From IMG/VR virus record IMGVR_UViG_3300033412_000058, positions 1-26,303 of that record: a stretch of 26,303 bases of DNA; one strand, 5' to 3'. Each line of letters starts with the position of its first letter. The first letter of the stretch is position 1. The notes below the pieces were generated by a model. It saw only the letters and a program-made list of their open reading frames with translations, was not told the origin of the DNA and made no database searches. Positions 692-24,382 of the stretch are shown here, piece after piece. Both the position numbers and the translations under genes were made by a program. This DNA is from a virus (Duplodnaviria > Caudoviricetes).

Positions 692-2167
692 GTGGACAAG
701 GCGGCTAGAGACCGGCTCGCACGGCACCTCGCGACCCTCCCGCTAGAGCAGCGCAAGGTCGTCCTCGACCAGATTCAGGGCTACGTCCCGCCCGTGCGGC
801 GGACGAAGTACATGCCCCCGACGCTCTCCTTCAAGCAGGAGGCGTTCCTCCGCGCGCCCAACCTGGAGATTCTCTACGGCGGGGCTGCCGGTGGCGGCAA
901 GACTGCCGGGATGCTCGCGGCTGCGCTCCAGTACGCGGACCAGCCGAACTACGATGCGCTCATCATCCGCAGGACCCACGCAGAGCTGGAGATGCCCGGG
1001 GCCACGATCTCCCTGGCTAAGCGCTGGCTGGGGGGCAGCGACGCCGCATGGGTCAAGGGGAACCATTATGAGTTCCCCCTGGGGGCCACGCTCAACTTCG
1101 GCTACCTCTCCCGCGACGACGACAAGTGGCAGTACCAGTCTGCGAACTACAACTTCATCGGCATCGACGAGGCGGCTGAGTTCCCGAACGAGGACACCTA
1201 CAAGTTCCTGTTCTCGCGGCTCCGGCGCGGGGCCGAGATCAAGATTCCCTCGCGCATGCGCCTGGGGGCGAACCCGATCGGGCCTGGGGCCAACTGGCTC
1301 AAGCGCAGGTTCATCACCTGCCCGTTCGACCCGGCGCTCGCCGAGGAACCCTGTGAGGTCTGCCAGCACTACCACTGGAAGGACCACTGCGACGCCGAGA
1401 AGTGCGACTGCCCCTACAACCCCAACTCCGAGCCCCGCCTCTACATCCCGGCGCGCCTTGAGGACAACCCGTTCCTCGACAAGATCGCCTACAAGCGCTC
1501 GCTCTCGAACCTCGACCCGTACACGCGCGTCGCGCTTGAGAGCGGCGACTGGAACGCGAAGCCCCCGGGCAAGATGTTCCGCCGCGAGTGGTTCATCCCC
1601 GTGCCGGGCGGCCCAGCCGACCCGTTCACCGCACGCGTGCGTTTCTGGGACCTGGCCGCGACCGCCGAGGACAAGAACAAGAACCCGAGCTATACCTGCG
1701 GCGCGAAGCTCAGCTACCACAACGGGCTCTATACGGTGGAGCACGTGGTGCGAAAGCGCGCCACCCCGGGCGACGTGAAGGATCTGGTCAAGACGACCGC
1801 ATACGCCGACGGCCCGAGCGTGGCGATCTGGATCGAGCAGGAGCCCGGGTCGTCCGGCATCGCCGTGATCGCGGACTACATCAGGTTCCTGCCGCAGTTC
1901 GTCGTGCGCCCGTTCAAGGCGACGGGCGAGAAGACCGTGCGGGCCGCGCCGTTCGCCTCCCAGTGCGAGGCCAAGAATGTGCGCATGGTGACGGCACCCT
2001 GGAACGAGCCCTACCTTGAGGAGATGGAGCAGTTCCCGAGCGGCACGGTGAAGAACGACCAGGTGGACGCGAGCTCGGGCGCGTACAACGTGCTAGTCAA
2101 CTACCCGGACTTCTCCGCGATCGCCAGCTACGGCGAGCGGACGAAGCCAGACTGGAACTTCGGATGA
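692..2167 (+). CDS. terL: terminase large subunit (Terminase_6-type ATPase plus RNase H-like nuclease)
   Basis: Walker A YGGAAGGGKT, Walker B FIGIDEA, coupling motif GANP, nuclease acidic motifs RFWDLA, IWIEQE and NDQVDA; lies upstream of the portal. Confidence 0.95.
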   Translation: MDKAARDRLARHLATLPLEQRKVVLDQIQGYVPPVRRTKYMPPTLSFKQEAFLRAPNLEILYGGAAGGGKTAGMLAAALQYADQPNYDALIIRRTHAELEMPGATISLAKRWLGGSDAAWVKGNHYEFPLGATLNFGYLSRDDDKWQYQSANYNFIGIDEAAEFPNEDTYKFLFSRLRRGAEIKIPSRMRLGANPIGPGANWLKRRFITCPFDPALAEEPCEVCQHYHWKDHCDAEKCDCPYNPNSEPRLYIPARLEDNPFLDKIAYKRSLSNLDPYTRVALESGDWNAKPPGKMFRREWFIPVPGGPADPFTARVRFWDLAATAEDKNKNPSYTCGAKLSYHNGLYTVEHVVRKRATPGDVKDLVKTTAYADGPSVAIWIEQEPGSSGIAVIADYIRFLPQFVVRPFKATGEKTVRAAPFASQCEAKNVRMVTAPWNEPYLEEMEQFPSGTVKNDQVDASSGAYNVLVNYPDFSAIASYGERTKPDWNFG

Positions 2168-2821: not shown

Positions 2822-5800
2822 ATGGCAACGCGCCCCCAGTCAAAGCGTAAGTTCAAGTCCACCATCCCGCCGAAGCGCCCCAGCAGCAGGGGCGGCGGCA
2901 ACACGTCCGGCTTTCCGCTCGGCTCCGAAGTCAGCACCGTCAGCTCGTACCTCTACCTGACGCGCCCGTACCCCTACAATCCCGACGACATCATCGGGAA
3001 GAAGGGGGTCAGGAAGTACACCGAGATGGCGCGCGACGAGCAGATCAAGGCGGCGATGCTCGCCAAGCAGTTCTCCGTCATCGCGCCCGGTTGGGAGGTC
3101 GTCCCGTCCGCCCACGAGAAGCAGTCCGAGAAGGACGACGCCGAGGACGTGGCCGACTTCGTCGAGCAGAACTTCAACGACATGGCCGGCAGCTTCGACA
3201 CCAAGCTGATCGAGATGCTGAGCGCGCTCATCTACGGGTACTCGGTCGCGGAGAAGGTCTTCTGGCTGATCGACTACGGCGACTACGAGGGCCGGGTCGG
3301 GCTGAAGGAGCTGAAGTTCCGCAACCCCGAGGGGTTCGACTTCGACATGGACCCGTACGGGAACCTGTACCCCGACGGCGTCCTCCAGGCGCAGCGCCGG
3401 CTCCCCGCCGAGAAGTTCGTCATCTACAGCTACCGCAAGAAGTTCTCGAACTACTACGGCGACAGCGACCTGCGCGAGTGCTACAGGCCGTGGTGGGCCA
3501 AGGACAACGTGATCAAGTTCATGATGATCACGCTGGAGCGCTACGGCGAGCCGACCTGGGTGTTCAACGCCTCGGGCGGCCTCAGCGGCGAGACGAAGTC
3601 GCTGCTTGAGAACTTCATGCGGGACATCCAGAGCAAGTCCGGGCTGATCCTGCCCGACACGATCCAAGCCGACCCCAAGAGCCCCGCCACCGACGCCGGG
3701 CGCACCTACATCCCCGTCCTGGAGTACCTCGACGGCCTGATCAGGGGCGCGCTCGGCCTGCCTTCGCTGATCGGCGCGTCCACCAGCGAGAAGGAGGTGG
3801 GCAGCCTCGCGCGGTCGCAGACGCAGTTCGACCTGTGGGTGACTCTCATGGAGTACATCCGCCACGACGTGGAGGCGAACCTCAACGAGCAGGTGATCAA
3901 GCCTCTCGTCGACATGAACTTCGAGGTGCTCGACGGGCTCTATCCGGTGTTCCGCTTCAAGGCGCTCACCGAGGACCAGAAGACCAAGCAGTTCGAGGAG
4001 TACCTGAAGGGGCTCAGCGGCAAGGCCCTCACCAAGACGCGCGAGGACGAGAACTTCTTCCGCGAGCGCCTGGAGATGCCGCTCCTGTCCGAGGACTACC
4101 CGGTCGCGGGCGAGGTCACCCCCGAGATGCAGCAGCAGCAGGACCAGATGGCGAAGGAGCAGCACGACGCCATGATCGCCACGATGAACGCGAAGGCGGA
4201 GAACGGCGGCGCCGGGCTGCCGGGCGGCGGCGGCTTCCCGCCGAAGGCCGCGAAAAAGGACAACGCGGAGGCGGAGGCCGTAGTCGGCGATGTCGTCAGG
4301 CCGCAGCAGCAGGAGCTCAAGTTCGAGACCGAGAAGGAGCGCCACGCCCGCGAGTACCGCGAGTGGAAGGACAAGCAGCTCCTCCAGGACCACCTGATCA
4401 ACCACGAGCGCAACCGCGACCTGACCGGCCCGGACGCGCGCCACGTCTCGACCTACATGCACGGCACGGTCTCCATGCAGTACCTCGACGTGCCGGGCGT
4501 GGACGAGATGCACCGGGCGATGGGCATGGAGCCCGACCTCGACACCGAGCCGAAGAAGTACGCGCAGGCGCGCGCACGGCTGTTCAACAAGCAGCCGAAG
4601 CGCCGGGTGCCGCTCTCCGACATCCGCTTCACGCAGACCCACGTGCACAGCGGGCGCGTCGAGGAGATGTCGCACGACCCCGAGGCGCTGAACAAGCACG
4701 TGCAACTCCTCAAGGGCGGCGGCTCGCACTACCTCATGGACGGCCACCACAGGGTCGTCGCCCGCCACCTCGCCGGCAAGAAGTTCGTGCAGGCGCAGGT
4801 GTTCGAGCCGAAGAAGAAGTTCTGGGACGAGGACGCCCACCCGAGGCACCCGTCCGGGTCCGACCGTGGGGGAGAGTTCGCACCGAAGGGCGAAGGGGAC
4901 CGCGCTGGCGAGGCCAAGGGACGCAAGGAGGGCTCCGGCAGCATAGCTGACCTGATCAGCCGGCCGACCCCCGAGAATCCGAATATTGACGCAAATAAAG
5001 ACGGAATTACCGATGCGGCCAGGGTCGGAGTGCCCGGACTCCAGACTCCGCCTCCGCCCCCAGATATTCCACGACTCCCCAACCTGACACATGAGGAGCG
5101 GGCCGTGGAGAGCAACTTCGCGGAGGCCTACGAGGCGAACCCGTCCGACATGGTGTCCGCATACCTCAATCAAGTGACGACTTCCGGCGCTCCGAACACC
5201 TTCTCCACCGACGACGCGAAGATGCTCTCGCCCGACTACGCGCGGAGCAACGACAACAAGGCCGTCTACAACGTGGCCGTGCATCAGACGGCCAACGCAG
5301 TCGCGAAGAACGCCTTCGCGCGCTACCTCGACGAGGTGGTGTCGAAGCTGCCGAAGGACCAGCAGACGATCCTCGTCACAGCCGGAGGCGTGGCCGCAGG
5401 CAAGGGCTATGCGCTCGGGAACATCGACTCGGCGAAGTCCGTGGCGTCGAAGGTCGGCGCTGTGTGGGACACGGCCGGCGAGCAGAACTCGACCGAGCTG
5501 CCCTGGGTCATGGACGAGGCGGCGAAGCGCGGCATGCGCGTTGTCTACGCCTACGTCGACGCCGACCCGATCACGACCTTCGAGCGGGTGGTCTCGCGCG
5601 CGCAGAAGACGGGCCGCATGGTCGACGCCGACCTCTACGCAGACAGCTACGCGATCGGCGCGCGCAACTTCCAGACCTTCGCCTCCAAGAACTCCGGCAA
5701 GGCGGACTTCCTGTACCTCTCGAACCGCACGGCCAAGCCCTCGCTGCTCGACAGCTTCCCGAAGGACGCTCTCGTTGACCGTGAGACCGTCTATCGCGCG

Positions 5801-5887
5801 GCGAAGAAGTATGTGTCAGCAAAGGCAGACAGCCTGAGCCCCGCCGTGCTCGCGGGTGCGACCATCGGAGAGCGCCTGTGGCACTGA
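2822..5887 (+). CDS. portal protein (Mu gp29/DUF935-like, about aa 40-430) fused to C-terminal ParB/Srx-like and zeta-toxin-like P-loop kinase domains
   Basis: Portal motifs LSALIYGYSVAEKVF, YGDSDLRECYRPWWAK, LERYGEP, GSLARSQ and QVIKPLVDMNF; ParB-like YLMDGHHRVVA at 4730-4762; Walker A AGGVAAGKG at 5381-5407; ERVVSRAQKTGRMV. Confidence 0.9.
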   Translation: MATRPQSKRKFKSTIPPKRPSSRGGGNTSGFPLGSEVSTVSSYLYLTRPYPYNPDDIIGKKGVRKYTEMARDEQIKAAMLAKQFSVIAPGWEVVPSAHEKQSEKDDAEDVADFVEQNFNDMAGSFDTKLIEMLSALIYGYSVAEKVFWLIDYGDYEGRVGLKELKFRNPEGFDFDMDPYGNLYPDGVLQAQRRLPAEKFVIYSYRKKFSNYYGDSDLRECYRPWWAKDNVIKFMMITLERYGEPTWVFNASGGLSGETKSLLENFMRDIQSKSGLILPDTIQADPKSPATDAGRTYIPVLEYLDGLIRGALGLPSLIGASTSEKEVGSLARSQTQFDLWVTLMEYIRHDVEANLNEQVIKPLVDMNFEVLDGLYPVFRFKALTEDQKTKQFEEYLKGLSGKALTKTREDENFFRERLEMPLLSEDYPVAGEVTPEMQQQQDQMAKEQHDAMIATMNAKAENGGAGLPGGGGFPPKAAKKDNAEAEAVVGDVVRPQQQELKFETEKERHAREYREWKDKQLLQDHLINHERNRDLTGPDARHVSTYMHGTVSMQYLDVPGVDEMHRAMGMEPDLDTEPKKYAQARARLFNKQPKRRVPLSDIRFTQTHVHSGRVEEMSHDPEALNKHVQLLKGGGSHYLMDGHHRVVARHLAGKKFVQAQVFEPKKKFWDEDAHPRHPSGSDRGGEFAPKGEGDRAGEAKGRKEGSGSIADLISRPTPENPNIDANKDGITDAARVGVPGLQTPPPPPDIPRLPNLTHEERAVESNFAEAYEANPSDMVSAYLNQVTTSGAPNTFSTDDAKMLSPDYARSNDNKAVYNVAVHQTANAVAKNAFARYLDEVVSKLPKDQQTILVTAGGVAAGKGYALGNIDSAKSVASKVGAVWDTAGEQNSTELPWVMDEAAKRGMRVVYAYVDADPITTFERVVSRAQKTGRMVDADLYADSYAIGARNFQTFASKNSGKADFLYLSNRTAKPSLLDSFPKDALVDRETVYRAAKKYVSAKADSLSPAVLAGATIGERLWH

Positions 5888-6471
5888 GCCTCGTCGACGA
5901 ACTCAAGCATGGGATGCTCCAGAACCTCACCGAGGCGATGGCGGACCCGGACGCGTGGGACGAGAAGGAGGCTGAGCGCCAAGAGGGCTTCCACCCGGTC
6001 GACCTCGACGAAGTAAAAAAAAACAGCTTCCCTGATCACAAGGGCAGGCCGGGACTGAGGGGCGGCAGCCTGCCGCGAGGCGAGTCCGACCAGGAGGTGG
6101 ACGAGCTGAAGGAGAAGGCCGTCAAGTCGGGGGGCTTCACCTACAACCCCGTGCGCTGGAAGGACCGCGAGCCGCCGAAGAACGGCTTCGCGCTGAGCGT
6201 GCGCAAGGACACCGAGAAGGTCGTGGACCTCAGCGCCAAGCGCGACGAGCTGCGCAAGCAGCTGAAGCAGTACATCCACGAGCACCGCGCCGACATCAAG
6301 GCGCAGGGCAACTTCCTCGGCGGCTGGATCGACAACGGCAAGCTCTACCTCGACATCTCGAAGGTCGTGGGCGAGAGGCAGAAGGCGATCGAGCTGGCGC
6401 AGAAGGCGGACCAGCTGGCGATCTTCGACCTGGGCAAGGGCGAGACGATCGACGTGAAGAAGGCGGCGTGA
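5878..6471 (+). CDS. effector-array protein: acidic N-terminal peptide, HKGRPGLRGGSLP tag and an uncharacterised alpha/beta domain
   Basis: Start overlaps the portal stop; domain pattern GGFTY...GFALS...FLGGWIDNGKLYLDIS...A...A...DQLAIFDL. Confidence 0.8.
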   Translation: MALSLVDELKHGMLQNLTEAMADPDAWDEKEAERQEGFHPVDLDEVKKNSFPDHKGRPGLRGGSLPRGESDQEVDELKEKAVKSGGFTYNPVRWKDREPPKNGFALSVRKDTEKVVDLSAKRDELRKQLKQYIHEHRADIKAQGNFLGGWIDNGKLYLDISKVVGERQKAIELAQKADQLAIFDLGKGETIDVKKAA

Positions 6472-9400
6472 TGCCAGAGGCGAAGTACGTACTGATCGAC
6501 ATCCAGGAGGGCGACGACGAGGACGCCGCGATCGAGCGGCTGCTCGACGAGCTGGTCGGTCCAGAGCCGGCGCCAGACATCCGCGAGAATGCCGAGTGGG
6601 ACGAGTCGAAGCACCCGAGGAAGCCCAAGGGCGGGGAGTCGGGCGGCGAGTTCGCTCCGAGCGGCGACTCCGGCGCGGGCAAGCCGAAGACCAAGGCGGA
6701 GCTGCGCAGGGCGAAGCGCGAAGAGGACAAGTTCTGGAACTCCCACTACGTTCACTCCGACATACAAGGCATAGAGAAGGGGACGAGCGAGGAGAACCTG
6801 AAGTCGATCTTGAAGAACGGCTTCAGGGGCGGCCCGCACGTGAACCTGCTACCGGCGTTCGGCTTTCGCGGTCCGCGCGACAGGGCCGACATCATGAGCT
6901 TCAACTACTGGCCCAAGAAGGGGTCGATAGTCTACCTCGTGCCGGAGTCCGACATCGTCGTCGTGCACGGCACCGCCAGGGTCAAGACAGGCTGGAAGCC
7001 CGGACCCAATCAGGTGTTCCGCATAGACGACCCGGACAAGTCGCTGTATGACTACTACCGCGAGGCCTCCGGCAAGAAGTATGAGTGGCAGGAAGAGGCG
7101 CACCCGCGTCATCCTTCCGGCAGCGACAGAGGCGGAGAGTTCGCTCCCAAAGGGAGTGACAGTGCGGCTAACGGCAAAGACTCCGAGAAGAAGACATCAG
7201 GCACGGTCGAGGGCATCGTCGACCCGTCAGAGCTGATCGTCACGAGCGGCTCCGACGCAGGACCGGGCTTCTCCCCTGAACAGGTCAGGGAACGCGACCG
7301 CGTCATCAACTCGATAGACGCGGTCGCCCGGAACTGGCTCCACAACAAGACGGGCGGCGACAGGGAGCCCACGCGCGGCGAGCTGGCGGAGATGATGAAG
7401 TTCGTGGGCACGAAGTACGGCGACCAAGTGGACAAGATCATCGCCGACTTCTCCGACTACACGAAGTACCCGGACCGGCCGGCGATCCACCTCGTCGTCG
7501 GCGAGAAGAACGTCCCCGACGTGTGGCTGCTCGGTTGGCGCGAGGAGCAGAAGGGCCTTGAGGCCACCCCGATCCACGACCACGGCGCGAGCGAGGCCGG
7601 CATCTACGTGCACAAGGGCTCGGTCAACGAGCGCATCTTCGCGATCGACAAGAAGGACTTCGGCAAGGACACGCTCGCCTTCCACGAGGTCGACCGTGGG
7701 CTGAACGAGGGGTCGGGCATCACGATCAACGCGCCCTACCTGCACGACATCGGCGCCTCCCACGGCGAGAAGCTCTCGGTCACGGTCCACGCCTACTACC
7801 CGCCGCTGAACGACATGGGCTTCTACGAGGTGAAGGGCAAGAAGCTCGTGAAGTCGGGCTCCTGGAAGGAAGACCCGAACGTCATGAAGGCCAAGGGCTT
7901 CCGCGACCACACTTTCCCCTGCTACCACTACCACAGGCGCAAGTACCACGAGGAGACCCCGTGGGGCGTGCACGCCTACGAGTGGGTCGGCTCAAAAAAA
8001 AAGTCCGTAAAAAAGTTTGAGTGGAACGAAGAGGACCACCCTCGTCAGCCCGGAGGGTCTGAGAAGGGCGGCGAGTTTGCGCCGAAGGGCGGCGGGCTCG
8101 CTGAGCAGAGGACGGCCGCGATCGCGGATGTCTCCAAGCTCGCCGACACGATCATCAACAAGGAAGTCGAGGTCGATGTGCTCGAGGAGGACAAGTTCCA
8201 CGTTCCTGAGAGCTGGGATGATGTGTCAGAGAGTGATCAGGACGCCGTGAAAGAGCAGTGGATCGACGACAACAAGCAGGAATACTACGAGTCCGCGGTC
8301 GAGAATTGGTGGGAGACCGAGGCGATCGAGAGCGCACGCAGCTACGCCGTGTGGCAGGAGAAGGACTGGGCCAAGGAGAAACTGTCGGAGCTGCTCGAAG
8401 AGCACGGCGTCGACCTGGAGAAGAGCGGGCTGCTGGACGAGAAGGGCGAGCTCAAGGAGGAGGTACTAGGCGAGCTGTGGGACAAGGACGCGGACAACGA
8501 GTACGCGTTTCGGTACAACGGCCAGAGCGGCAAGTGGAACGACGACAAGGGCCTCTCCTACGACAGCCGGAAGTACGAGCTAGTCGACAACTCGGGGCTC
8601 GTCAGCCCGGAAGCGCTCGGCGAGATGGTCGACTCCGAGGGCAACAACCTGTTCGTCGGGTCCGAGGCGTTCCCTGGCCAGCTCGGCCTGGCAGGCGTGC
8701 CCAAGATGCCGTCGTCGTCCGAAACTGCCAGCGACCTGCTTAACGACTTCGAGAGGGCCGTGCTTGAGAAGACCGACGACCCGCAGAGCTTCATGGAGGC
8801 GCCCGACGCGGAGTACTTCCAGGACAGCATCAACGACTACATCGGCGAATCGTTCGATGAGAAAGACGACAGCGAGAAGTTCGAGCTGGCCAAAGATAAG
8901 TACGGCAGCGACTGGGACGACAACGAGCGCGGCGAGACCGTCACGGCCACGCTCACGCCTCCGTCCGAGTGGAAGCTCCTGAGCGACGGGCGCGACTACG
9001 AGCGCACCAAGGCGATCGGCAACGAGCTGAGCAAGGAGCGGTTCCTGCAAGTGCTCGCAGATCGCGGGATCAAGAGCAATTCAGACCGCGCGGCGCAAGC
9101 AATCAAAGATGTCTGGTCGAGCTGGACTGGCGACTCAGGTGGGCGGCTCGCCTACGCGATGCAGGCGGCGGCAGCCGACGAGCTGGGTGGGAACTTCTAC
9201 AAGAGCCGCGACAAAGACAAGGCGGATGCGGTCAATGACGCGAACGAACTCTTTCCGGGCGGATACGACGGTCTCAAAGCCTACGTGCGCGCGCAGTGGG
9301 AAGTGAACCAGTACCTGTTCGACAAAGCCAAGGTCGACCACCTCGACCTGTACCGGGCGGTCATGGTGCCGACGAAGAACCTGGAGGGCCACACGCAGAA

Positions 9401-9791
9401 GATCGTCATGGACTCGACTTACGGCGGCATGCCGTACTACACAGCCGTGCCCACGATGTTCATCCATCAGAACGGCGCCGCGTCGTTCACCGCCAAGGAA
9501 AGCGTCGCCAACAACTGGAACGGCGTCGGCTACCGACCCGACGAGCCTTCGGAGCGCGTGGTGATCCGCGCGCGCGTGCCCTCGACGGCGGTCCTCTCTC
9601 TGCCGGTGTTTGGCAAGAACCTGGCGAGCGAGGAGGAGGTCGTCGTCACTGGGCTCCCGTGGAAGTCCTGGGACGCGTGGCGAGGCCGCGCGCCGAGCAA
9701 CGAGGAGTTCAACATGCTCCACCCGCGCGGTCCAGACGGAAGATTCGTTGACAAGCCGGGCGGCTCCGACGCAGAGAAGAGGGCGGCATGA
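6468..9791 (+). CDS. 1107-aa polyvalent effector protein: ART-like domain, cysteine-dioxygenase-like cupin, acidic helical region and R-S-E ADP-ribosyltransferase, separated by HPR tags
   Basis: H...GTSEENLKSILKNGF; WLLGW...TPIHDHG...YLH...VHAYYPPL; LYRAV...SFT...EEEVVV. GTGA and ATGA coupling at the two ends. Confidence 0.85.
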   Translation: MMPEAKYVLIDIQEGDDEDAAIERLLDELVGPEPAPDIRENAEWDESKHPRKPKGGESGGEFAPSGDSGAGKPKTKAELRRAKREEDKFWNSHYVHSDIQGIEKGTSEENLKSILKNGFRGGPHVNLLPAFGFRGPRDRADIMSFNYWPKKGSIVYLVPESDIVVVHGTARVKTGWKPGPNQVFRIDDPDKSLYDYYREASGKKYEWQEEAHPRHPSGSDRGGEFAPKGSDSAANGKDSEKKTSGTVEGIVDPSELIVTSGSDAGPGFSPEQVRERDRVINSIDAVARNWLHNKTGGDREPTRGELAEMMKFVGTKYGDQVDKIIADFSDYTKYPDRPAIHLVVGEKNVPDVWLLGWREEQKGLEATPIHDHGASEAGIYVHKGSVNERIFAIDKKDFGKDTLAFHEVDRGLNEGSGITINAPYLHDIGASHGEKLSVTVHAYYPPLNDMGFYEVKGKKLVKSGSWKEDPNVMKAKGFRDHTFPCYHYHRRKYHEETPWGVHAYEWVGSKKKSVKKFEWNEEDHPRQPGGSEKGGEFAPKGGGLAEQRTAAIADVSKLADTIINKEVEVDVLEEDKFHVPESWDDVSESDQDAVKEQWIDDNKQEYYESAVENWWETEAIESARSYAVWQEKDWAKEKLSELLEEHGVDLEKSGLLDEKGELKEEVLGELWDKDADNEYAFRYNGQSGKWNDDKGLSYDSRKYELVDNSGLVSPEALGEMVDSEGNNLFVGSEAFPGQLGLAGVPKMPSSSETASDLLNDFERAVLEKTDDPQSFMEAPDAEYFQDSINDYIGESFDEKDDSEKFELAKDKYGSDWDDNERGETVTATLTPPSEWKLLSDGRDYERTKAIGNELSKERFLQVLADRGIKSNSDRAAQAIKDVWSSWTGDSGGRLAYAMQAAAADELGGNFYKSRDKDKADAVNDANELFPGGYDGLKAYVRAQWEVNQYLFDKAKVDHLDLYRAVMVPTKNLEGHTQKIVMDSTYGGMPYYTAVPTMFIHQNGAASFTAKESVANNWNGVGYRPDEPSERVVIRARVPSTAVLSLPVFGKNLASEEEVVVTGLPWKSWDAWRGRAPSNEEFNMLHPRGPDGRFVDKPGGSDAEKRAA

Positions 9792-12310
9792 AGAAAAAAG
9801 AGGCGAGCGGACAGTTCGGCGGAAGGGTGCCCGATGGCGCGTTCGTGATCCCGCCGCTCGACCTGCCGCTGGAGCGTCCGCACTGGCTCTCGGGCGGCGC
9901 CGGCCAGAAGGCGCAGATCAAGGCGCTCATCAAGCGCAAGCGAGCTGAGAAGAAACTCTGGGAGGAGTCGCAGCATCCGCGCCACCCTGCGGGGTCGGAC
10001 ACCGGAGGCGAGTTCGCGCCGGCAGGCGGGGGCGCCGAGTCGGCCACAAAGGAGAAGGCCAAGAAGAAGGCCGTTATCAAGGGCGACGTGTCCGAGGCGG
10101 CCGACGCGCTGGGCGTGGTGCCCGACGACATCGCGGAGGGCTTCGGCCTCGACAGCGACGAGTTCCACACCGAGATCACAGCCAGCGAGACGAGGGGCGA
10201 GGGCTCCGACCCGGACGAGAGCTCGATCCGCGCCTCCTTGGCCGAGAGCTTCAACGAGACTTTCGACCGCCAAGAGGAGTTGGACCGCTTCATCGAGAAG
10301 GAGCGCGAGAGCTACGACGACACCGACGCACGCGAGTACGTCGAGGGGCCTCTCCGCAAGGACATCGCCAAGAATAAGGAGCTACGAGACAGCGTGCTGA
10401 AGGAGGCCGAGCTGGACGACTCGGCGAGCGACGCGGACAAGCAGAAGGCGATCGACGAGTACGTGCAGCGAGAGACCGAGGACCAGCTCAACGAGTACAT
10501 CGACGAAGAGATCAACCGGATCGTGGATGACGACTTCGAGAGCCACGTCGACAGGATGCGCGACCAGTACATCGAGGACAACTACAACGACGAGGTCGAC
10601 GCCTGGCGCGAGGCGAACCCGAGCAGCGTGGACCAGATCACGATCGAGGGCGACGTGAGGACCGCCGACAACCACAGGGTCGCCTCGTTCACACGCGAGA
10701 TTCACCCCGAGGACGGCTACGCCTACCACGCGAGCTTCTTCATCGACAAGGAGTACCAGAACAAGAAGATCGCCCGCGACCTGCTCGACCGGAGCGTCCA
10801 CATGTACGACAAGATCGGGCTGAATGAGGTCAAAGTCTTCGCGAACGGCGACGTCGGGAAGTACGCCTGGGCGATGTACGGCTTCGACTTCGACGACCAG
10901 TACGCGCTGGAGAACTTCCGCTCGGCCCTGCTCGCCCGCGTCGCCGAGACGGACGCGTACAAGAAGATGACGAAGGAGCAGCAGGTTCAGGAGCTCGCGA
11001 AGGTCAGGGCGGTCAAGCACTCGTGGGACGTGGCCGCGTACCGGGTCGGCGGCGAGAAGGTCGGCAAGGACCTCATGCTGCACGGCACGTCGTGGAACGG
11101 GACGCTGAAACTCAAGGGCGAGGGCCGAAAGATATTCGACGCGTACACCGCAGCCTCCAAGCGCCCGCCCGAGGACAAGAGCCAGCTCAAGCTCCCGTTC
11201 GCGCAGAACGACGGCATGGCCGACCAGGACAGCGAGGCGTTCCACTACGACATCCTCGGCATCGAGGACGAGATGCACGCGATCATCAACCGCCGCGACC
11301 ACGCGCACGCCTACGAGTGGAACGAGTCGGAGCACCCCCGCGACACTGAGATGGACGACGCCGAGGGGAAGAAGCTCCTCGACGAGGCCATCAGGGAGCT
11401 GGACGGCGAGCACGACCACGCGCACCACTACCGCGCCAAGACGGGCCCGGAGCGCCGGGTCGACTTCGCGCAGGCGAAGCAGGCGCTCGACGCGAGCGAG
11501 TCGAACGTCAAGGAGCGGCTCACGGGGCAGCTGAAGGGCGTGCAGGACCAGCTCCTCGCCTGGGTGCGCGTCACGCCGCTCAACTCCGACGTCGTGCGGC
11601 AGCTCGCCGTGGCGACCCCGGCCGACACGCAGCGCACGCTCCAGGACATGTTCGAGGGCGCCTGGGGCGAGGGCAAGGACGCCGGCATCTCCGAGGTGCC
11701 GCGCGCGGTGCGCGCGCAGCCGCGCGTGCAGGACGTGCGGACCTTCGCGCTCCTCAAGTACGACGCGGGCTTCGAGCCCGAGGAGGCGATGACCGCCTTC
11801 GAGAACAGGGCGTGGATGATCAAGGACGTGATCGACGCGAACATCCAGGCGCAGGTGCGCCTTGAGCTGTTCGAGCACCTGAAGGGCGGACGCACGCTGG
11901 GCGACACAATCGACCGGCTCCGCGAGGTGTTCGAGCCGTGGGTCGGCGACCCCGAGAAGGTCGGGTCCGACGACCTGCTGCGCGCGCCGCGCCTTGAGAA
12001 CATCGTGAGGACCGAGAGCACCTGGGCCTACAACCAGGGCCGGCTCGCGGTGGGCGACGCGGCCGAGGACTACGTGATCGGCTACCAGTTCAGCGCGATC
12101 ATCGACGAGCGCACGACCGAGACCTGCCAGACGGCGGACGGTCTCGTGCTGCGCAAGGACGACTCGCGCACGATCCGGCTCACGCCTCCGCTCCACTTCC
12201 AGTGCCGCTCCGTGCTAGTCTTCGTCACGCAGGACGACCAGCCCGTCGAGTGGTCGGACGACCGCGAGATCGACAAGGCGCTGGCGCTCGTGCCGAAGGG
12301 GTTCAAGTGA
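9788..12310 (+). CDS. MuF/SPP1 gp7-like head morphogenesis protein with an N-terminal extension (HPR tag, acidic region, GNAT acetyltransferase)
   Basis: C-terminal MuF motifs RLENIVRTESTWAYNQGR, YQFSAIIDERTTETC and PPLHFQCRS; GNAT-like FFIDKEYQNKKIARDL...GKYAWAMYGFDF. Confidence 0.9.
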   Translation: MKKKEASGQFGGRVPDGAFVIPPLDLPLERPHWLSGGAGQKAQIKALIKRKRAEKKLWEESQHPRHPAGSDTGGEFAPAGGGAESATKEKAKKKAVIKGDVSEAADALGVVPDDIAEGFGLDSDEFHTEITASETRGEGSDPDESSIRASLAESFNETFDRQEELDRFIEKERESYDDTDAREYVEGPLRKDIAKNKELRDSVLKEAELDDSASDADKQKAIDEYVQRETEDQLNEYIDEEINRIVDDDFESHVDRMRDQYIEDNYNDEVDAWREANPSSVDQITIEGDVRTADNHRVASFTREIHPEDGYAYHASFFIDKEYQNKKIARDLLDRSVHMYDKIGLNEVKVFANGDVGKYAWAMYGFDFDDQYALENFRSALLARVAETDAYKKMTKEQQVQELAKVRAVKHSWDVAAYRVGGEKVGKDLMLHGTSWNGTLKLKGEGRKIFDAYTAASKRPPEDKSQLKLPFAQNDGMADQDSEAFHYDILGIEDEMHAIINRRDHAHAYEWNESEHPRDTEMDDAEGKKLLDEAIRELDGEHDHAHHYRAKTGPERRVDFAQAKQALDASESNVKERLTGQLKGVQDQLLAWVRVTPLNSDVVRQLAVATPADTQRTLQDMFEGAWGEGKDAGISEVPRAVRAQPRVQDVRTFALLKYDAGFEPEEAMTAFENRAWMIKDVIDANIQAQVRLELFEHLKGGRTLGDTIDRLREVFEPWVGDPEKVGSDDLLRAPRLENIVRTESTWAYNQGRLAVGDAAEDYVIGYQFSAIIDERTTETCQTADGLVLRKDDSRTIRLTPPLHFQCRSVLVFVTQDDQPVEWSDDREIDKALALVPKGFK

Positions 12311-13840: not shown

Positions 13841-13906
13841 CGCAGCGAAAAGCCTGAAGACCGAGTATCCGGCAACGGAGAAAAGTTTTCAGGCTTTTTT
13901 GCTGTG
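13841..13906 (+). promoter_or_regulatory. long leader hairpin sequestering the protease start codon
   Basis: CGCAGCGAAAAGCCTGAAGAC pairs with GTTTTCAGGCTTTTTTGCTGTG; apical TCCG-GCAA-CGGA hairpin flanked by AGTA/GAA. Confidence 0.7.
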
Positions 13907-15460
13907 GACCCGAAGAACCAAGACACCCTACCGACCGTGACCCTCGACAACGTCGAGGTGTTCTCCGTCGGGACCTGGAACGGGGACCCGTACTCCGAGC
14001 ACGACCTCGACCAGATGGTCTCCGCGTTCCACGAGCTGCGCTCCAGCTGGGAGCCGGCCGCGAAAGCGGGGCACGAGGACGGGCAGGAGAAGGACGGCAT
14101 GATGAGCCGCCTCTTCGGCGTTCCGGCGCTCGGCTACGTCGACCAGCTCGCCCGCAAGGGCGGCAAGCTGATCGCGCGCTTCAAGGACATGCCGCGCCGC
14201 TTCGCCGGGCTCGTCAAGGCGGGCACCTACAAGAAAATCTCCTCCGAGGTCTACTGGAACTACAAGAACCCCGCCACCGGCAAGGTCTACCCGCGCGTGC
14301 TGAAGGCTGTCGCCTTCTTGGGTGCGGACGTTCCGGCAGTCACCAACCTCAAGGAGATCGAGGCGCTGTTCTCCGTCAAGGACAACGGCGCGCTGGTGGC
14401 CTACGACGACGCGAAGAACGAGTTCCGGGCCTACGAGCAGGAGTACTGCGGCGAGGCGTACGTCGCCCCGATGCAGACCCGCAAGCTCGACAAGGCCACG
14501 GTCAAGTACAGCGAGAGCGGCAAGGCGGACGACACGTGCGGCAAGTGCCGCTACTTCCAGGGCGACCAGTGCTCCGTCGTCGAGGGGACGGTGGACTACA
14601 ACGGCACCTGCGACTTGCAGAAGCCGTACCCCTCGAAGATGGCCTCGATCGTCCGCGTGAAGAGCCACAGCATCGTCCGTCAGGGCGACAAGTTCTGCGT
14701 GGTCTCGAAGGACGACCCGAGCAAGGTCCTGGGCTGCCACGACACCGAAGAGGATGCCCAGAAGCAGCTCGCCGCTGTCGAGGCAGGCAAGGCGGACAAC
14801 GGCAACAACGACAACGACGGCGACGAGATGAAACCGCCTTTCAAAAAGAACAATTCGGAGGGTCACATGAACGAAGATCAGATCAACGAGCTCATGAAAA
14901 AGCGCGAGGACGAACTCAAGCTCCAGATGTTCAAGGAGTTCGAGGATCGCATCCACAAGGCGCGCGAAGAGGGCAAGGAAGAGGCCAACAAGGAGGCCGA
15001 GGCCCTACGCGAGGACATCCGCAAGCTCCAGCTTGAGAAGCGCTCCGAGCGCATCGAGGCGTGGATCAAGAGCATGAAGGAGCAGGGCAAGCTGCTCCCG
15101 GCCGAGGAGTCCAAGGTGCGGAGCCTCCGCCAGTGGATTCCCGACGAGGGGACCGACCTGAAGTTCTTCTCCGTCAAGGAGGGGAAGACCCAGGAGTTCA
15201 CTGCCGGGCCGGCTGAGATTTTCGAGTCGCTCTTCTCGAACCGTCCGAGCATCTTCCGCACGCTGAGCGCGCACGAGGACAGCGAAGAGGACCAGGGCTC
15301 CGTCCTTCAGGACGCGGGCGCCGAGGTCGACCGCCGCGCGAAGCAGTTCGCCGAGAAGCGGGCGAAGGACGGCGTGAAGGTCGCCTACATGGAGGCCGTC
15401 AAGCACGTCCTGGCGGGCAACCCCGGTCTTGCCGAGCGCTACCGCCAGCAGCGGCAGTAA
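13904..15460 (+). CDS. prohead protease (Mu gpI-like) fused to scaffold, with two inserted Cys-containing mini-domains
   Basis: VEVFSVGTWNG, KAGH (candidate catalytic His), PALGYV, YKKISSE (candidate catalytic Ser), LKAVAFLGADVPAV; charged coiled-coil C-terminus; lies upstream of the cement and MCP genes. Confidence 0.88.
   Translation: MDPKNQDTLPTVTLDNVEVFSVGTWNGDPYSEHDLDQMVSAFHELRSSWEPAAKAGHEDGQEKDGMMSRLFGVPALGYVDQLARKGGKLIARFKDMPRRFAGLVKAGTYKKISSEVYWNYKNPATGKVYPRVLKAVAFLGADVPAVTNLKEIEALFSVKDNGALVAYDDAKNEFRAYEQEYCGEAYVAPMQTRKLDKATVKYSESGKADDTCGKCRYFQGDQCSVVEGTVDYNGTCDLQKPYPSKMASIVRVKSHSIVRQGDKFCVVSKDDPSKVLGCHDTEEDAQKQLAAVEAGKADNGNNDNDGDEMKPPFKKNNSEGHMNEDQINELMKKREDELKLQMFKEFEDRIHKAREEGKEEANKEAEALREDIRKLQLEKRSERIEAWIKSMKEQGKLLPAEESKVRSLRQWIPDEGTDLKFFSVKEGKTQEFTAGPAEIFESLFSNRPSIFRTLSAHEDSEEDQGSVLQDAGAEVDRRAKQFAEKRAKDGVKVAYMEAVKHVLAGNPGLAERYRQQRQ
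14867..15460 (+). CDS. scaffolding protein from an internal in-frame start
   Basis: GGAGG at 14857-14861, 5 nt before in-frame ATG 14867, preceded by an A/U-rich stretch; same arrangement as Mu I/Z and lambda C/Nu3. Confidence 0.65.
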   Translation: MNEDQINELMKKREDELKLQMFKEFEDRIHKAREEGKEEANKEAEALREDIRKLQLEKRSERIEAWIKSMKEQGKLLPAEESKVRSLRQWIPDEGTDLKFFSVKEGKTQEFTAGPAEIFESLFSNRPSIFRTLSAHEDSEEDQGSVLQDAGAEVDRRAKQFAEKRAKDGVKVAYMEAVKHVLAGNPGLAERYRQQRQ

Positions 15461-15879: not shown

Positions 15880-16860
15880 ATGGACGGAACTGTAAACCCT
15901 GGTATCGTAAAACGCTTCGCCGGAGCCACGGGCCGGGACTTGCACATCGACGTGCCCCTCACGGGTCTCACGATCGCGTACGAGCCGCAGGGCCTGATCG
16001 CGCCGATGATCTACCCGGTCGTCAGCGTCGACAAGGAGACCGGCGTCTACTACACCTGGCCCAAAGCGGAGAGCATGCGCCTGTACGACGCCTTCCGCGC
16101 GCGCGGGCGTGAGGCGAACCGCATCACGTTCGACGTCAGCTCGGACGGGTACGCTGTCAAGAACTACAGCTTGGCGCTGGACATCCCGCTCGAAGACATC
16201 GCGAACGCAGACGCGGCGCTCAACATCCAGGCTTCGGCCGCAGAGCGCGTCACCGACGGTCTGAATCTGGCCTGGGAGGACCGTCTCGCGACGACCCTCA
16301 CCACGACCACGAACATGACCTCCTCGACGGCGCTGGCCAACCCGTGGTCCGACTTCACGAACAGCTCGCCGATCGACGACCTGTACACGGCCCGCAACGC
16401 GATCCGCAAGCAGACCGGCTACACGCCGAACGTCTGGATTTACTCCGACGTGGCGTGGACCAACATCTCCCGGCACCCCGACGTGATCGAGTTCATCCGG
16501 GGCAAGGGCGACGACACCGGAGGCGGCCCCGTGAGCGAGCAGCAGCTCGCCAACGCCCTCGGGGGCGGGCGCGTGCTTATCGGTAAGGGCCTGAAGAACA
16601 TCGCGGCAGAGGGCCAGGCCCCCGTCTTCACCGACGTGTGGTCGACCGCCTGCGTGGTGCTCTATGTCGCGCCCAACCCGGGCATGATGCAGCCGTCGCA
16701 CGGCTACACCTTCCGCTGGACCCCGACCGGCCTCCCCGGCCCGCTGGCGGTCGAGCGCTACCAGAACACGCGCCCCAAGACGGAGTCCGTCGAGGTGCAC
16801 ATGTTCCAGGACGAGAAGGTCACCGGCGCGGACCTCGGCTATCTGATCGTGGGGTGCTAA
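15880..16860 (+). CDS. major capsid protein (HK97 fold)
   Basis: 326 aa; HIDVPLTGLTIAY, IAPMIYPVVSVDKE, PWSDFTNSSPIDD, GYTPN, PSHGYTF and DEKVTGADLGYLI; AAGGAG RBS; consistent synteny. Confidence 0.9.
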   Translation: MDGTVNPGIVKRFAGATGRDLHIDVPLTGLTIAYEPQGLIAPMIYPVVSVDKETGVYYTWPKAESMRLYDAFRARGREANRITFDVSSDGYAVKNYSLALDIPLEDIANADAALNIQASAAERVTDGLNLAWEDRLATTLTTTTNMTSSTALANPWSDFTNSSPIDDLYTARNAIRKQTGYTPNVWIYSDVAWTNISRHPDVIEFIRGKGDDTGGGPVSEQQLANALGGGRVLIGKGLKNIAAEGQAPVFTDVWSTACVVLYVAPNPGMMQPSHGYTFRWTPTGLPGPLAVERYQNTRPKTESVEVHMFQDEKVTGADLGYLIVGC

Positions 16861-17869: not shown

Positions 17870-17945
17870 GGCGAGGGCGGAGATTTAATCTTCAACTCCC
17901 TCCCGAGGTGTGTTACACACACAGCGAGGAGGGATTGGCGCTTTG

Positions 17946-20900
17946 ATGAGAACCTACGAGCTAGACATAGTGATGTACGTCTCCGGGCTCCCGTTCGACG
18001 GCGACACGATCCCGTCCGGGCAGTCGCTCGGCGGGTCGGAGACGGCTGCCGTCCAGCTGGCCGAGGAGCTGGGAAGGCAGGGCCACAGGGTCACCGTCTT
18101 CTGCAACTGCGAGGGCGTGAAGGAGATCGGGGGCGTGCTCTACTCGCCGATCGGCTGGGCGGGGCGGCAGTTCCCGAAGGGCTTCTACGACTACATCCGC
18201 TCCGTCCCCGTGGACGTGTGCATCGTGCAGCGCATCCCGAGCATGTTCCAGTTCGAGACGCGCTCGAAGGTGAACCTGCTCTGGCAGCACGACCTCGCGA
18301 CGAAGACCGGCCCGTCGATCTTCCAGCCCTACTGCTGGAACATCGACCGCATCCTCGTGCTCTCCCAGTTCATGAAGAAGCAGTACCAGGAGGTGCACGG
18401 CGGCAGCGACGACCTGTACCACGTCACGCGGAACGGCGTCGACCCCGAGCTGCTCGCGTCGGTGCCCGAGACTCCGCGAGACCGCTTCCGGCTGACCTAC
18501 ACCGCGCGCCCCGAGCGCGGGCTCGACATCCTCCTGCGCGGCGTGTTCCCGAAAATCCTTGAGCGCGAGCCCCGAGCCAAGCTCTACGTCTCGCGCTACA
18601 CCGACCCGAACACGATGGAGTTCTACGGGCAGCTGGAAGCCGAGATGAAGCGCTTCGGCGACCGCGTCGAGTTCCTTGGCAACCTGGGCAAGAAGGCGCT
18701 CTACGACAACTACCGGCGCTCGCGCCTGTACCTGTACCCCTCCATGTTCGAGGAGGTGAGCTGCATCACGGCGATGGAGGTCGCGGCCAGCGGCTGCGTG
18801 TTCCTCGGCCCGTGGCGCGCCGCGCTCCCCGAGACGCTTGGCGGGTGCGCCCCGCTCCTCACGGACGAGGGCGTGCTGGGCCGACCCGGCGACGCCGCCG
18901 AGACCGGGCTCAAGCCCCCGAGCGAGAAGTTCGTGGCGGCGGTGGCCGACCACGCCGTGCGGCTCATGCGCGACGACGCGTACTGGGAGGACTGGCAGCG
19001 GAAGTCCCTCGTACGCGCTCAGGGGCTCAGCTGGAAGGGTGTGGCCGAGGACTGGATGCAGCTTGTGCACGAGACGATCGCGAGGAAGTCCGGCGACGCG
19101 CGTCGCATGGTGCGCCACTTCCTGTTCAACTCGGACGTGGTGGCCGCGCGCAAGTACGCGGACGAAGCGAAGTCCCCGCAGCTCCAGCGCTCGGTCGACA
19201 ACTACGTGGACCGCTACGTGCCGTTCATGTCGCGCCGCATCCCCGAGGAGAAGCGCCCGACGATCCAGCAGTTCTACGAGCAGCGGAGCGGCGGCGACCG
19301 CGCCAACTGGCAGACGGCGATGTACGCCGAGACCGAGGTGCGGACCCAACAGCTGATCAACTTCATCCGGCCGCACGTCGAGTCGGGCGACATCAAGACG
19401 CTGCTCGACTTCGGGTGCGCGCACGGCGGCTACACCAAGGCGTTGACAGACGCCTTCCCGAACCTGAAGGTCGTGGGCGTGGACACCTCGCCCAGCCTGG
19501 TCAGGTGCGCGAACGAGCTGAAGGCGAGCGGGCAGTGCAAGAACCCGCAGAACATGCGCTTCGTCGTCGCAGACGAGAACACGAGCATCCCGAAACTGAA
19601 CGACCTTGAGTTCGGCGATGACGGGATCGAAACGTATCAAAAGCCGTTCGACTGCGTGGTCGCGATGGAGGTGCTGGAGCACCTACCCGACGCCGAGGCT
19701 GCGGCTACCAAGCTGGAGGGCTTGTGCAGGGAGGGCGGGTGGACCATCTTTACAGTCCCCTCTGGCCACCGTGAGCGCGACGAGCTGGTGTCGAAAGGAG
19801 TGCCTCCGGTGCACGTGCGGTCCTTCGACCTGCACGACCTGCGCGACCTGTTCCAGAGGAAGCCCGAGTACTCGGTCACGAGCTTCAGCGACCTGACCGA
19901 GGCCGAGATGGACCGCACGTTCTCGTGCTGGTTCATGGTCTGCTACAGGGCCAACCACTGGCCGCTGGGCGAGATCGACTACCAGCGGAAGTTCTTCCTC
20001 CAGGGGCCGCGCGAGACCCTCGCCGTGTGCGTGATCGCGCACAACTCCGAGGACGTGATGCACCGCTGCCTGCGCTCGGTGATCCGATACGCGGACCAGG
20101 TGATCGTGGTCGACAACGGCCCGTCCACCGACCGCACGGCCGAGGTTGCGATGGAGTACACAGAGGACGTGCGCGCCGGCACGAGCCCGTTCTGGTGCTA
20201 CACGCACCTGGTCGTCCACCCGTACGACGGGATCGACCCGAACGTGTGCGAGATGGCCGGCTTCGAGACGCCGCGCAACGAGTCGGTCGAGGGCGTGTGG
20301 ACCGACTGGATCATGTGGATCGACTGCGACGAGCAGCTCCTCGACCCGGCGAACCTGCCGAAGTACCTGCGGAGCAACTGCTACGTGGGGTACGCCGTCG
20401 AGCAGCACCACATCTCGGTCGACGCGGTCAGCGCGATGAAGCGCGACGTGCCGGTGCGGCTCTACCGCAACGTGCCCGAGATGCGCTTCTACGGCATCGT
20501 GCACGAGCATGCGGAGCTGGGGATCAACAGGGGCGTGGGTCCGAACGTGATGGTGGCGACCGACGTGAAGCTCCACCACGACGGCTACCTGGTCGAGTCG
20601 ATCAGGCGGAACAGGTTCCGGCGCAACCTCCGGCTCCTCCAGTGCGACCGCAGGAAGTACCCGGAGCGGCTGCTCGGCTGGTTCCTCTACGAGATTCGCG
20701 ACTGCCAGCACATGGCGCGCTACGAGCAGGAGCAGAACGGCGGGTTCGTCAACGAGAAGGTGCAGCAGCTCTGCCACACGACGATCCGCGCCTACCGCGA
20801 GAAGTTCATGAAGGACAACATGATGATGTCCGAGGACGCGCTCAACTACTACTCGAACGCCCTGGCCATGCTCGGCATGGGCGTCGACGTGGTCGCGGAC

Positions 20901-21047
20901 ATCGAGATCGGGCGCCAGGGGAGCCCGATGGGCCCGCAGAAGTCGGTGATGCGCTTCCGCGCCGCCGACGTGAACGAGGCCGCAGAGATGCTCAAGACCC
21001 GCATGGGCCAGCTCGCCGTGCCGCACTCCGGGAGGTACGTGGCGTGA
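17946..21047 (+). CDS. three-domain enzyme: GT4-like glycosyltransferase, SAM-dependent methyltransferase and GT2-like glycosyltransferase
   Basis: GT-B motifs LGGSET, LWQHD, TRNGVD, RPERGL, YPSMFEEVSCITAME; MTase motifs LLDFGCAHG, VGVDTS, FDCVVAMEVLEHL; GT-A motifs VCVIAHNSE, VVDNGPSTDRT, WIDCDE, GIVHE. Start likely TTG 17943 or ATG 17946 after GAGGAGG (the track gives 17910). Confidence 0.9.
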   Translation: MRTYELDIVMYVSGLPFDGDTIPSGQSLGGSETAAVQLAEELGRQGHRVTVFCNCEGVKEIGGVLYSPIGWAGRQFPKGFYDYIRSVPVDVCIVQRIPSMFQFETRSKVNLLWQHDLATKTGPSIFQPYCWNIDRILVLSQFMKKQYQEVHGGSDDLYHVTRNGVDPELLASVPETPRDRFRLTYTARPERGLDILLRGVFPKILEREPRAKLYVSRYTDPNTMEFYGQLEAEMKRFGDRVEFLGNLGKKALYDNYRRSRLYLYPSMFEEVSCITAMEVAASGCVFLGPWRAALPETLGGCAPLLTDEGVLGRPGDAAETGLKPPSEKFVAAVADHAVRLMRDDAYWEDWQRKSLVRAQGLSWKGVAEDWMQLVHETIARKSGDARRMVRHFLFNSDVVAARKYADEAKSPQLQRSVDNYVDRYVPFMSRRIPEEKRPTIQQFYEQRSGGDRANWQTAMYAETEVRTQQLINFIRPHVESGDIKTLLDFGCAHGGYTKALTDAFPNLKVVGVDTSPSLVRCANELKASGQCKNPQNMRFVVADENTSIPKLNDLEFGDDGIETYQKPFDCVVAMEVLEHLPDAEAAATKLEGLCREGGWTIFTVPSGHRERDELVSKGVPPVHVRSFDLHDLRDLFQRKPEYSVTSFSDLTEAEMDRTFSCWFMVCYRANHWPLGEIDYQRKFFLQGPRETLAVCVIAHNSEDVMHRCLRSVIRYADQVIVVDNGPSTDRTAEVAMEYTEDVRAGTSPFWCYTHLVVHPYDGIDPNVCEMAGFETPRNESVEGVWTDWIMWIDCDEQLLDPANLPKYLRSNCYVGYAVEQHHISVDAVSAMKRDVPVRLYRNVPEMRFYGIVHEHAELGINRGVGPNVMVATDVKLHHDGYLVESIRRNRFRRNLRLLQCDRRKYPERLLGWFLYEIRDCQHMARYEQEQNGGFVNEKVQQLCHTTIRAYREKFMKDNMMMSEDALNYYSNALAMLGMGVDVVADIEIGRQGSPMGPQKSVMRFRAADVNEAAEMLKTRMGQLAVPHSGRYVA

Positions 21048-24027: not shown

Positions 24028-24373
24028 TAGACCGGCACAGCCCGACGTCCTGTTCGACCTTGCGACCAAGATGGGGGAGCTGACCGGGTCGCAACACGCG
24101 GTACTGGCGGAATTGAGCAGGCTCAACAGTGAGCTGCTGGGTCTTCGGGCCGAGCTGGATCGCAAGCACGAAGAGAATCTCAGGCTCATCGCAACCCGCC
24201 ACGATGAGAACATGACGGCGATCAACATGCACGCTGCGGACGACGCGAGGAACTTTCAGAAAATCTTTCGGTGGATGAACTACTTCTCAGGGGCGGTTGG
24301 CGTCATCACTATCATCTGGGGAATTATCAAAGTGGTCGCGCCGTTTCTGTCGTCAGTCAGACTGGGTGAATAG
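24020..24373 (+). CDS. coiled-coil protein with a C-terminal TM helix (holin/XhlA-like lysis accessory)
   Basis: Heptad region followed by YFSGAVGVITIIWGIIKVVAPFL. Confidence 0.7.
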   Translation: MASRPAQPDVLFDLATKMGELTGSQHAVLAELSRLNSELLGLRAELDRKHEENLRLIATRHDENMTAINMHAADDARNFQKIFRWMNYFSGAVGVITIIWGIIKVVAPFLSSVRLGE

Positions 24374-24382
24374 GGGGGGGGC

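Follow-up and report, generated by a model that had tools for sequence, protein, structure and literature searches.

Why should a short peptide recur in front of one protein module after another among the head genes of a phage? The window analysed here is a stretch of 26,303 nucleotides that covers the whole of a 26-kb virus contig, and two other contigs are near-identical to it (99.9%). It spans late genes of a phage, with a terminase, a portal, cargo ORFs, a MuF ORF, a protease-scaffold and a major capsid protein, arranged as follows.

692..2167, plus strand: terminase large subunit (Pfam Terminase_6N/6C; phrog_979)
2822..5887, plus strand: Mu-type portal (residues ~40-440; Portal_Mu, E 2e-49) with a C-terminal extension
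within 2822..5887, plus strand: portal ORF residues ~500-665, an untagged module that we take to be ParB/Srx-like from a DGHHR motif seen by eye
C-terminal part of the same ORF, plus strand: tagged P-loop module, weakly zeta toxin-like (Zeta_toxin, E 0.007, below cut-off)
4805..11411, plus strand: cargo block; in two relatives, portal, ParB-like module and MuF are encoded by one gene, and a junction of 14-45 residues takes the place of the block
5878..6471, plus strand: 197-residue ORF with an acidic leader, an alternative tag and a phrog_17808 module of unknown function
6468..9791, plus strand: 1107-residue polyprotein of three tagged modules, namely one of unknown content, a cupin (cysteine-dioxygenase-like; CDO_I, E 1e-9), and an acidic region with a predicted ADP-ribosyltransferase-like domain (R-S-E pattern by eye; no Pfam match); homologues of the modules lie behind tags in other phages
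9788..12310, plus strand: 840-residue ORF with a leader, a tagged acidic and GNAT-like module, a truncated tag and then MuF (Pfam GNAT, E 1e-4, below cut-off; Phage_Mu_F, E 2e-13)
13904..15460, plus strand: Mu-like prohead protease and scaffold (phrog_976, E 4e-36; alignments; weak structural matches)
15880..16860, plus strand: major capsid protein; its leader has 13 residues and ends in KRF, with AGATGR next (phrog_1005; leader analysis)

The peptide, referred to here as the HPR tag, follows the pattern W-x-E-x-x-H-P-R-x8-G-x-F. A recount agrees with the first-pass annotation, which had listed five full and two partial copies together with a different Gly/Pro/His (HKGRPG) motif in ORF 5878 (HKGRPGLRGGSLP, at 6037). 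The strict pattern occurs five times in the six frames of the window and not once in 200 shuffles. The copies and the alternative tag are given below.

4823..4879, plus strand: copy 1, portal residue 668; KKF before the tag
6597..6653, plus strand: copy 2, ORF 6468 residue 44; NAE before the tag, an exception in that the aromatic residue is absent
7086..7142, plus strand: copy 3, ORF 6468 residue 207; KYE before the tag; lowest codon adaptation
8022..8078, plus strand: copy 4, ORF 6468 residue 519; KFE before the tag
9959..10015, plus strand: copy 5, residue 58 of the MuF-containing ORF; KKL before the tag, an exception with Leu rather than Phe/Tyr
9720..9746, plus strand: degenerate short-form tag, HPRGPDGRF, 20 residues before the stop with no cargo behind it
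11318..11344, plus strand: truncated tag, WNESEHPRD, without G-x-F; AYE before the tag; adjoins the MuF part
6022..6075, plus strand: alternative tag, NSFPDHKGRPGLRGGSLP, with related modules elsewhere behind HPR tags

Every copy that is followed by cargo is intact, including the one in the portal fusion, whose loading would not require a tag, and both cargo-less copies are degenerate. Because neither fusion to the portal nor a place within a polyprotein has cost modules an intact tag, and the tag has decayed where there is no cargo, it appears to act on each freed piece. A separate feature of the DNA is that the window has just two A9 runs (6015-6023 and 7994-8002, with an A6 run at 8009), and each lies no more than 30 bases before a tag. 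They are read in frame as A-AAA-AAN, and the -1 frame meets a stop within a few codons; slippage at these runs could make some chains terminate ahead of the next module. As a general feature of tags, slippery A-runs were rejected, being found at only 2 of 176 tags, both in the window.

How widespread is the tag, and in what company is it found? Searched against 1.84 billion proteins, a profile of the five copies matched 634 cluster representatives at E<=0.001. The best 150 of these 634 contain 358 tags, 270 with an 8-residue spacer and 33 with a 3-residue spacer, and tags within a protein are spaced by a median of 254 residues. The short-form DNA pattern was found in 133 stretches of the scanned part of a viral collection (~340 estimated) and in 123 stretches of the scanned part of a bacterial collection (~250 estimated). 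Among distinct viral tag loci of at least 12 kb, 44 of 51 have a head marker, meaning a terminase, portal, MuF, protease or capsid gene recognised with local references and labelled partly by eye; of the remaining seven, several carry genes that PHROGs assigns to the neck, capsid or tail. For bacterial loci of at least 12 kb, a head marker is absent nearby in 8 of 30. The first-pass annotation had proposed such a survey of the tag and its context, and the outcome assigns the motif to virion-head cargo. The cargo is diverse: 158 tagged segments fall into 111 clusters, and Pfam matches among 150 segments include ART, PBECR, LPD1/3/13, zeta-like, GNAT, ParB, topoisomerase IB, 2H, NUDIX and kinase domains, with the majority of the 150 having no Pfam match. 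MuF was rejected as a required partner of the tag, since local profiles did not detect it in 19 of 46 tag loci of at least 14 kb. Two tag profiles found nothing credible among PDB sequences, Pfam likewise had no match, and a search of the ESM Atlas gave no usable match. Searches of a GenBank phage set by tblastn gave no match in one case and one match at E=3 in another, and the genome stretches examined for E217, BcepF1, Jinkies, MN1, phiT1 and Vibaki have no tag.

The residues directly before the tag are genome-specific. When sorted into residue classes that were defined after looking, they agree in 266 of 391 pairs within proteins, versus 21% after shuffling; at a control site 40 residues upstream of the tag, 17 of 309 pairs agree. 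A label-free test on 28 lineages, which are phylogenetically non-independent and of which L021, L026, L072 and L087 owe their labels to weak matches or by-eye alignment, detected a protease-family signal at -3..-1 (0.183, null sd 0.031, P<0.001); near-identical loci, loci without an assigned protease or tag, and groups L006/L058, L008, L020 and L082 were left out. The same test detected no family signal at -6..-4, -9..-7 or -13..-11, nor any downstream of the tag; inside the tag, there was a weak one (P=0.03). With families assigned per locus from PHROGs, Pfam and local profiles, and no family assignable at many loci, the tag is preceded by Asp in the DUF2213 family (10/10), by Lys/Arg in the HK97-like (12/12) and XkdF-like (27/35) families, by Ala-Ala/Gly in the actinophage-type family (6/7), and by Phe/Tyr in the Mu-like family to which the window belongs (5/7). 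The exceptions are L051 and L079, which have an XkdF domain and Asp or Gly-Ser-Asn before the tag, and L026 (RLE); in the window itself, Phe/Tyr is absent before two of the six copies that start with Trp (NAE and KKL). L082, which has an S77 protease and lies outside the 28 lineages, has SGA before the tag. A prohead-protease site likely lies just before the tag, a feature that the T4-type reading of the first-pass annotation had missed. A possible parallel comes from E217, a DUF2213-type phage whose capsid protein has the sequence AMD64-S65: PMC10329688 places the start of capsid protein density at residue 66, and there and in PMC11456595 the authors allow either cleavage or disorder for the missing residues. 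As an aside on L051, its XkdF-like protease domain is the C-terminus of a 2H phosphoesterase protein, weakly Acb1-like (L051:13485-15830), and the neighbouring polyprotein has six tags, five of them after D-x-E, unlike other XkdF loci.

In the window, the Mu-type protease likely cuts after Phe/Tyr. In a prediction test on 40 portal homologues, Phe/Tyr was present at -3..-1 for 8 of 8 tags, against a background of 92 of 358 (26%); for newly met proteins only, the count was 4 of 4. The capsid protein, as an independent check, gives a similar picture. Of 95 capsid homologues, 81 could be anchored; the leader ends in Phe/Tyr before A/G-x-ATGR in 61 of 63, and 14 of 18 leaderless homologues start with Met-x-ATGR at approximately the point where the leader would end. 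The protease, encoded by ORF 13904, has His57 and Ser113 invariant in 39 sequences, and in close homologues its domain terminates in EAL[FY]. The top Foldseek matches to a model of ORF 13904 are all T4 gp21/herpesvirus assemblins, and weak (E 0.008 or weaker); a profile of the protease found nothing credible among PDB sequences.

What might the tag do? The sequences show a conserved tag in front of interchangeable enzyme modules, with pre-tag residues that match the protease family of the genome. On balance, the prohead protease probably cuts after Phe/Tyr, 0-2 residues upstream, which would make the tag the new N-terminus, and the tag probably holds the module to something in the head until ejection. 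Modules would enter the prohead as portal or MuF fusions, or behind a short leader, and the prohead protease very probably frees each of them. The exposed tag would then bind a component that widely differing tailed phages have in common, most likely the portal or the inner capsid face and possibly DNA, thereby keeping the freed module and positioning it for exit with the genome. In elements without a detected protease, the tag at the natural N-terminus would do the loading itself. Once ejected, the modules would act on host defences within the first minutes of infection. If the partner were a protein, one would hardly expect the tag sequence to be so conserved in phages whose portals and capsids are unrelated, and DNA or a host factor could be bound instead. 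The tag alone is predicted with modest confidence to be a small loop closed between Arg and Phe (pLDDT 74, pTM 0.34, one Arg-Phe bridge). A complex prediction for the portal core, the capsid protein and the tag scored 0.00, which is not evidence either way.

The modules behave as movable units. Close portal relatives have different cargo behind the tag at the same position, and modules of the window turn up again in unrelated phages, where the tag ahead of them is preceded by residues proper to the phage concerned. Two relatives, P0191 and P0193, align to portal residues 1-661/663 and to MuF residues 542/543-840; we infer that the direction of change was gain of the 4805-11411 block by the window phage. 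Homologues of the ORF 5878 module lie behind HPR tags in four distinct proteins/loci, which bears out the earlier suggestion that HKGRPG is a different tag at the equivalent position. Given the recurrence of modules behind foreign tags and of the ORF 5878 module behind HPR, the cargo block has most likely built up as an array of cassettes, and HKGRPG is most likely an interchangeable alternative tag. Further tag types at equivalent positions are W-x-T-x-x-G-x-H-V-F-I, N-P-x-H-D-x-x-G-R-F and G-N-F-G-H-x-G-R-P-G (L008:13033-14310, L011:19349-20072, L005:8211-9473 and L060:444-3338). Portal cargo does not need a tag: the portal extensions of E217 and BcepF1 have none, and neither does the ParB-like module of the window.

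Tagged genes also occur alone. In gut phages, solo tagged genes have the tag from residue 2-4 and are scattered through late operons, and an S78 or ClpP-type protease was found in none of the five gut-phage records with solo tags. This near-N-terminal position, residue 2-5 over all elements in which no protease was found, indicates that the tag probably loads or retains cargo as well. A single mechanism, an N-terminal tag that binds a component present in all these heads, would account both for this position and for the intact tags of fusions and polyproteins: it would load unfused cargo and, once a cut has been made, keep the module and position it. Two solo tagged genes (L005:5089-6561 and L024:9971-11776) have in common an aromatic leader of 12-13 residues that stops at a Lys site. 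A true tag is present in 66 of 80 loci from bacterial genomes, with Met no more than five residues before it in 39. Genomes of the Gastranaerophilales type (gut Melainabacteria) have tagged chromosomal genes scattered among housekeeping neighbours; the tag is fused to phage lysozyme, M23 peptidase and papain-fold amidase, and there are lipase-like tagged genes too.

Is there a particle in these bacteria that could carry the tagged proteins? All five of the Gastranaerophilales-type genomes tested have two to four tagged genes with a near-N-terminal tag, and a common terminase family. Two of the five were scrutinised further (31 of 49 ORFs scanned) and have a ~16-kb podovirus-like structural cluster, at L308:1-16000 (G007:C12:16001-32000) and in L309 (G008:C50:104000-123999). 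The cluster contains a terminase, a connector, a capsid protein, tail tubes, internal virion proteins and a fibre, with housekeeping genes around it; a long tail is absent, and a 200-residue protein in the scaffold position has the PHROGs label "protease". A contractile-tail vehicle was considered and rejected, with PF04984 in 0 of 5 genomes. PF17289 was also found in 0 of 5, although a terminase is present; hence, family searches can miss genes, and the same applies to the "no protease" result. Among 61 sampled Gastranaerophilales genomes, the cluster is present in five, one of which has the tag at E<=0.001, and there are three weak tag matches in sampled genomes without the cluster. The cluster and the tagged genes are possibly a gene-transfer-agent-like effector carrier, or the tagged chromosomal genes may be prophage leftovers. 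A broader proposal, which we offer only tentatively, is that the HPR tag is a portable address, independent of host and phage, for HK97-type capsids; it would need a free N-terminus, with the preceding site tuned to four protease specificities. Melainabacteria would have captured it, and would load tagged lysozymes, M23 peptidases and toxin-like domains in trans into a domesticated podovirus-like particle. If this were true, the particle would represent a novel means of delivering antibacterial effectors.

There are several other ways to read the tag. It could be purely an ejection pilot that, once exposed, threads the portal first or meets a host import step, with no role in loading or retention. 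Two properties agree with a pilot: the tag is always at or near the predicted N-terminus, being kept even in portal fusions, and there is one tag per released module, as judged from the median spacing of 254 residues. However, a pilot would leave loading to some other signal, and none that is shared was seen on the solo genes whose tag begins at residue 2-5. Moreover, PMC9958956 describes T4 internal proteins as losing an N-terminal peptide, with IPI still injected. We consider a pure pilot unlikely.

Alternatively, the tag could purely target the capsid by binding the scaffold before cleavage, with fusion copies inherited from cassettes that were once solo genes. The model for such a signal is the T4 CTS, described in PMC9958956 as an N-terminal peptide of ~10 residues that is cut off IPII and IPIII by gp21 processing. 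Like the CTS, the HPR tag is short, belongs to head cargo that is non-structural and is predicted to adjoin a prohead-protease site, and the solo leaderless tagged genes of gut phages and bacterial chromosomes are what capsid targeting would lead one to expect. In contrast to the CTS, the tag sits behind the predicted cut rather than ahead of it and would stay on mature cargo. It occurs inside polyproteins and in portal and MuF fusions, and is common to several protease families; in the window, its copies start at residues 44-668, and it is N-terminal only in elements without a detected protease. The short leaders before the solo tags of L005 and L024 are more like the CTS than the tag is. The tag has also remained intact in portal fusions while synonymous sites saturated, and a purely targeting function is decidedly unlikely. 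Hence, of the original proposal of a capsid-targeting or ejection signal like the T4 CTS, the loading or ejection role most likely stands and the likeness to T4 does not, given a predicted cut upstream and a retained tag.

A third alternative is that the tag serves the protease, either by guiding an assemblin-fold enzyme to the adjacent site or as a cap that blocks degradation of the cargo. The tight spacing of 0-2 residues between the predicted site and the tag, the fold that the window protease may have in common with T4 gp21 (a weak structural match, E 0.008) and the small looped model of the tag all suit this idea. On the other hand, one tag serves four specificities and also occurs where no protease was found, making a docking site or cap very unlikely.

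Could the DNA of the tag be what matters, rather than the peptide? Copies 4823 and 7086 have an identical peptide of 19 residues, AHPRHPSGSDRGGEFAPKG, and differ in 12 of 19 codons, including AGG/CGT and TCC/AGC, where 8.3 differences are expected at saturation under phage codon usage (P=0.043). Over all ten pairs of copies, there are 81 synonymous differences at 152 positions versus 62.2 expected. The pairs that exclude copy 7086 have 41 versus 35.8 expected, and those that include it have 40 versus 26.5; three of these pairs are above the saturation expectation (P=0.007-0.04, uncorrected). Codon adaptation is 0.36 in copy 7086 and equally low in some cargo flanks. Because synonymous sites are saturated, the copies must be old and have been kept for their peptide. 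Selection on the peptide, as first proposed, is upheld, since residues are kept with synonymous sites near saturation. The suggestion of active recoding against recombination finds little support: divergence is approximately that of saturation, and the excess stems from one poorly codon-adapted copy, such that no recoding is needed for what is mostly synonymous saturation. A recombination junction, in which tag DNA provides homology for cassette exchange or was recoded deliberately against deletion, is extremely unlikely: close portal relatives do switch cargo at the tag, copies have 62-72% of their bases in common and copy 7086 exceeds saturation, but the longest common DNA stretch is 7-12 bases, saturation accounts for the pairs that lack copy 7086, cargo flanks are also low in codon adaptation, as foreign DNA would be, and conservation of the peptide is left unexplained, leaving at most a side role.

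How does cleavage followed by retention of the tag, the reading we prefer, relate to known systems? The tagged cargo has the same context of portal, MuF and head genes as polyvalent proteins and effectors fused to MuF or portal, as described in PMC5512222 and PMC9503650, and Pfam matches in related tag loci include ART, PBECR, LPD1/3/13, GNAT, 2H, NUDIX and ParB from the domain set given there. The window likewise has several unrelated catalytic domains per chain among head genes; of the polyvalent repertoire, GNAT and zeta are below cut-off, and ART and ParB are recognised by motif only. Processing of polyvalent proteins has been proposed to occur through zincin-like MPTases or fused assemblin domains (PMC5512222 and PMC9503650). 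No linker tag is named in the portions of this literature consulted, and "HPR" occurs 0 times in the main text of Iyer et al. 2017 (PMC5512222). The literature searched yielded no published description of the tag, and the supplementary alignments of Iyer 2017 may bear on this point. The tag is real and widespread, is apparently undescribed, and apparently represents head-cargo signalling outside the T4 CTS family. A further comparison is with polymorphic toxins, which have junction motifs such as VENN in CdiA and DPxGL in Rhs. In both systems, a conserved peptide marks the place where a constant carrier meets variable cargo. The HPR tag differs in that it is repeated along a polyprotein, has a predicted site for a separate protease before it, and is portable to solo genes.

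What are the implications? First, a tag of ~14-19 residues gives a direct handle on the release, retention and ejection of MuF and polyvalent effectors packaged in heads. Second, hundreds of cargo modules that lack annotation have their domain boundaries, and likely their mature N-termini, marked by the tag, and can be mined for early anti-defence proteins. Third, the tag allows one to predict where prohead proteases about which little is known would cut: after Asp for DUF2213, after Lys for XkdF-like, and after Phe/Tyr for Mu-like (phrog_976) enzymes. Fourth, if the tag loads foreign proteins, phage engineering would gain a general means of tagging cargo.

Other features of the window deserve mention. 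The ORFs at 5878, 6468 and 9788 each have a start that overlaps the stop of the preceding ORF. Each opens with a leader of 43-57 residues (5878-6020, 6468-6596 and 9788-9958), and these leaders could be partner peptides for the upstream module. A 1045-residue fusion of a glycosyltransferase, a methyltransferase and a second glycosyltransferase lies amid the virion genes at 17910-21047. Finally, a G9 run at 24373-24381 is directly 5' of a 59-residue holin-like ORF that starts at 24383.
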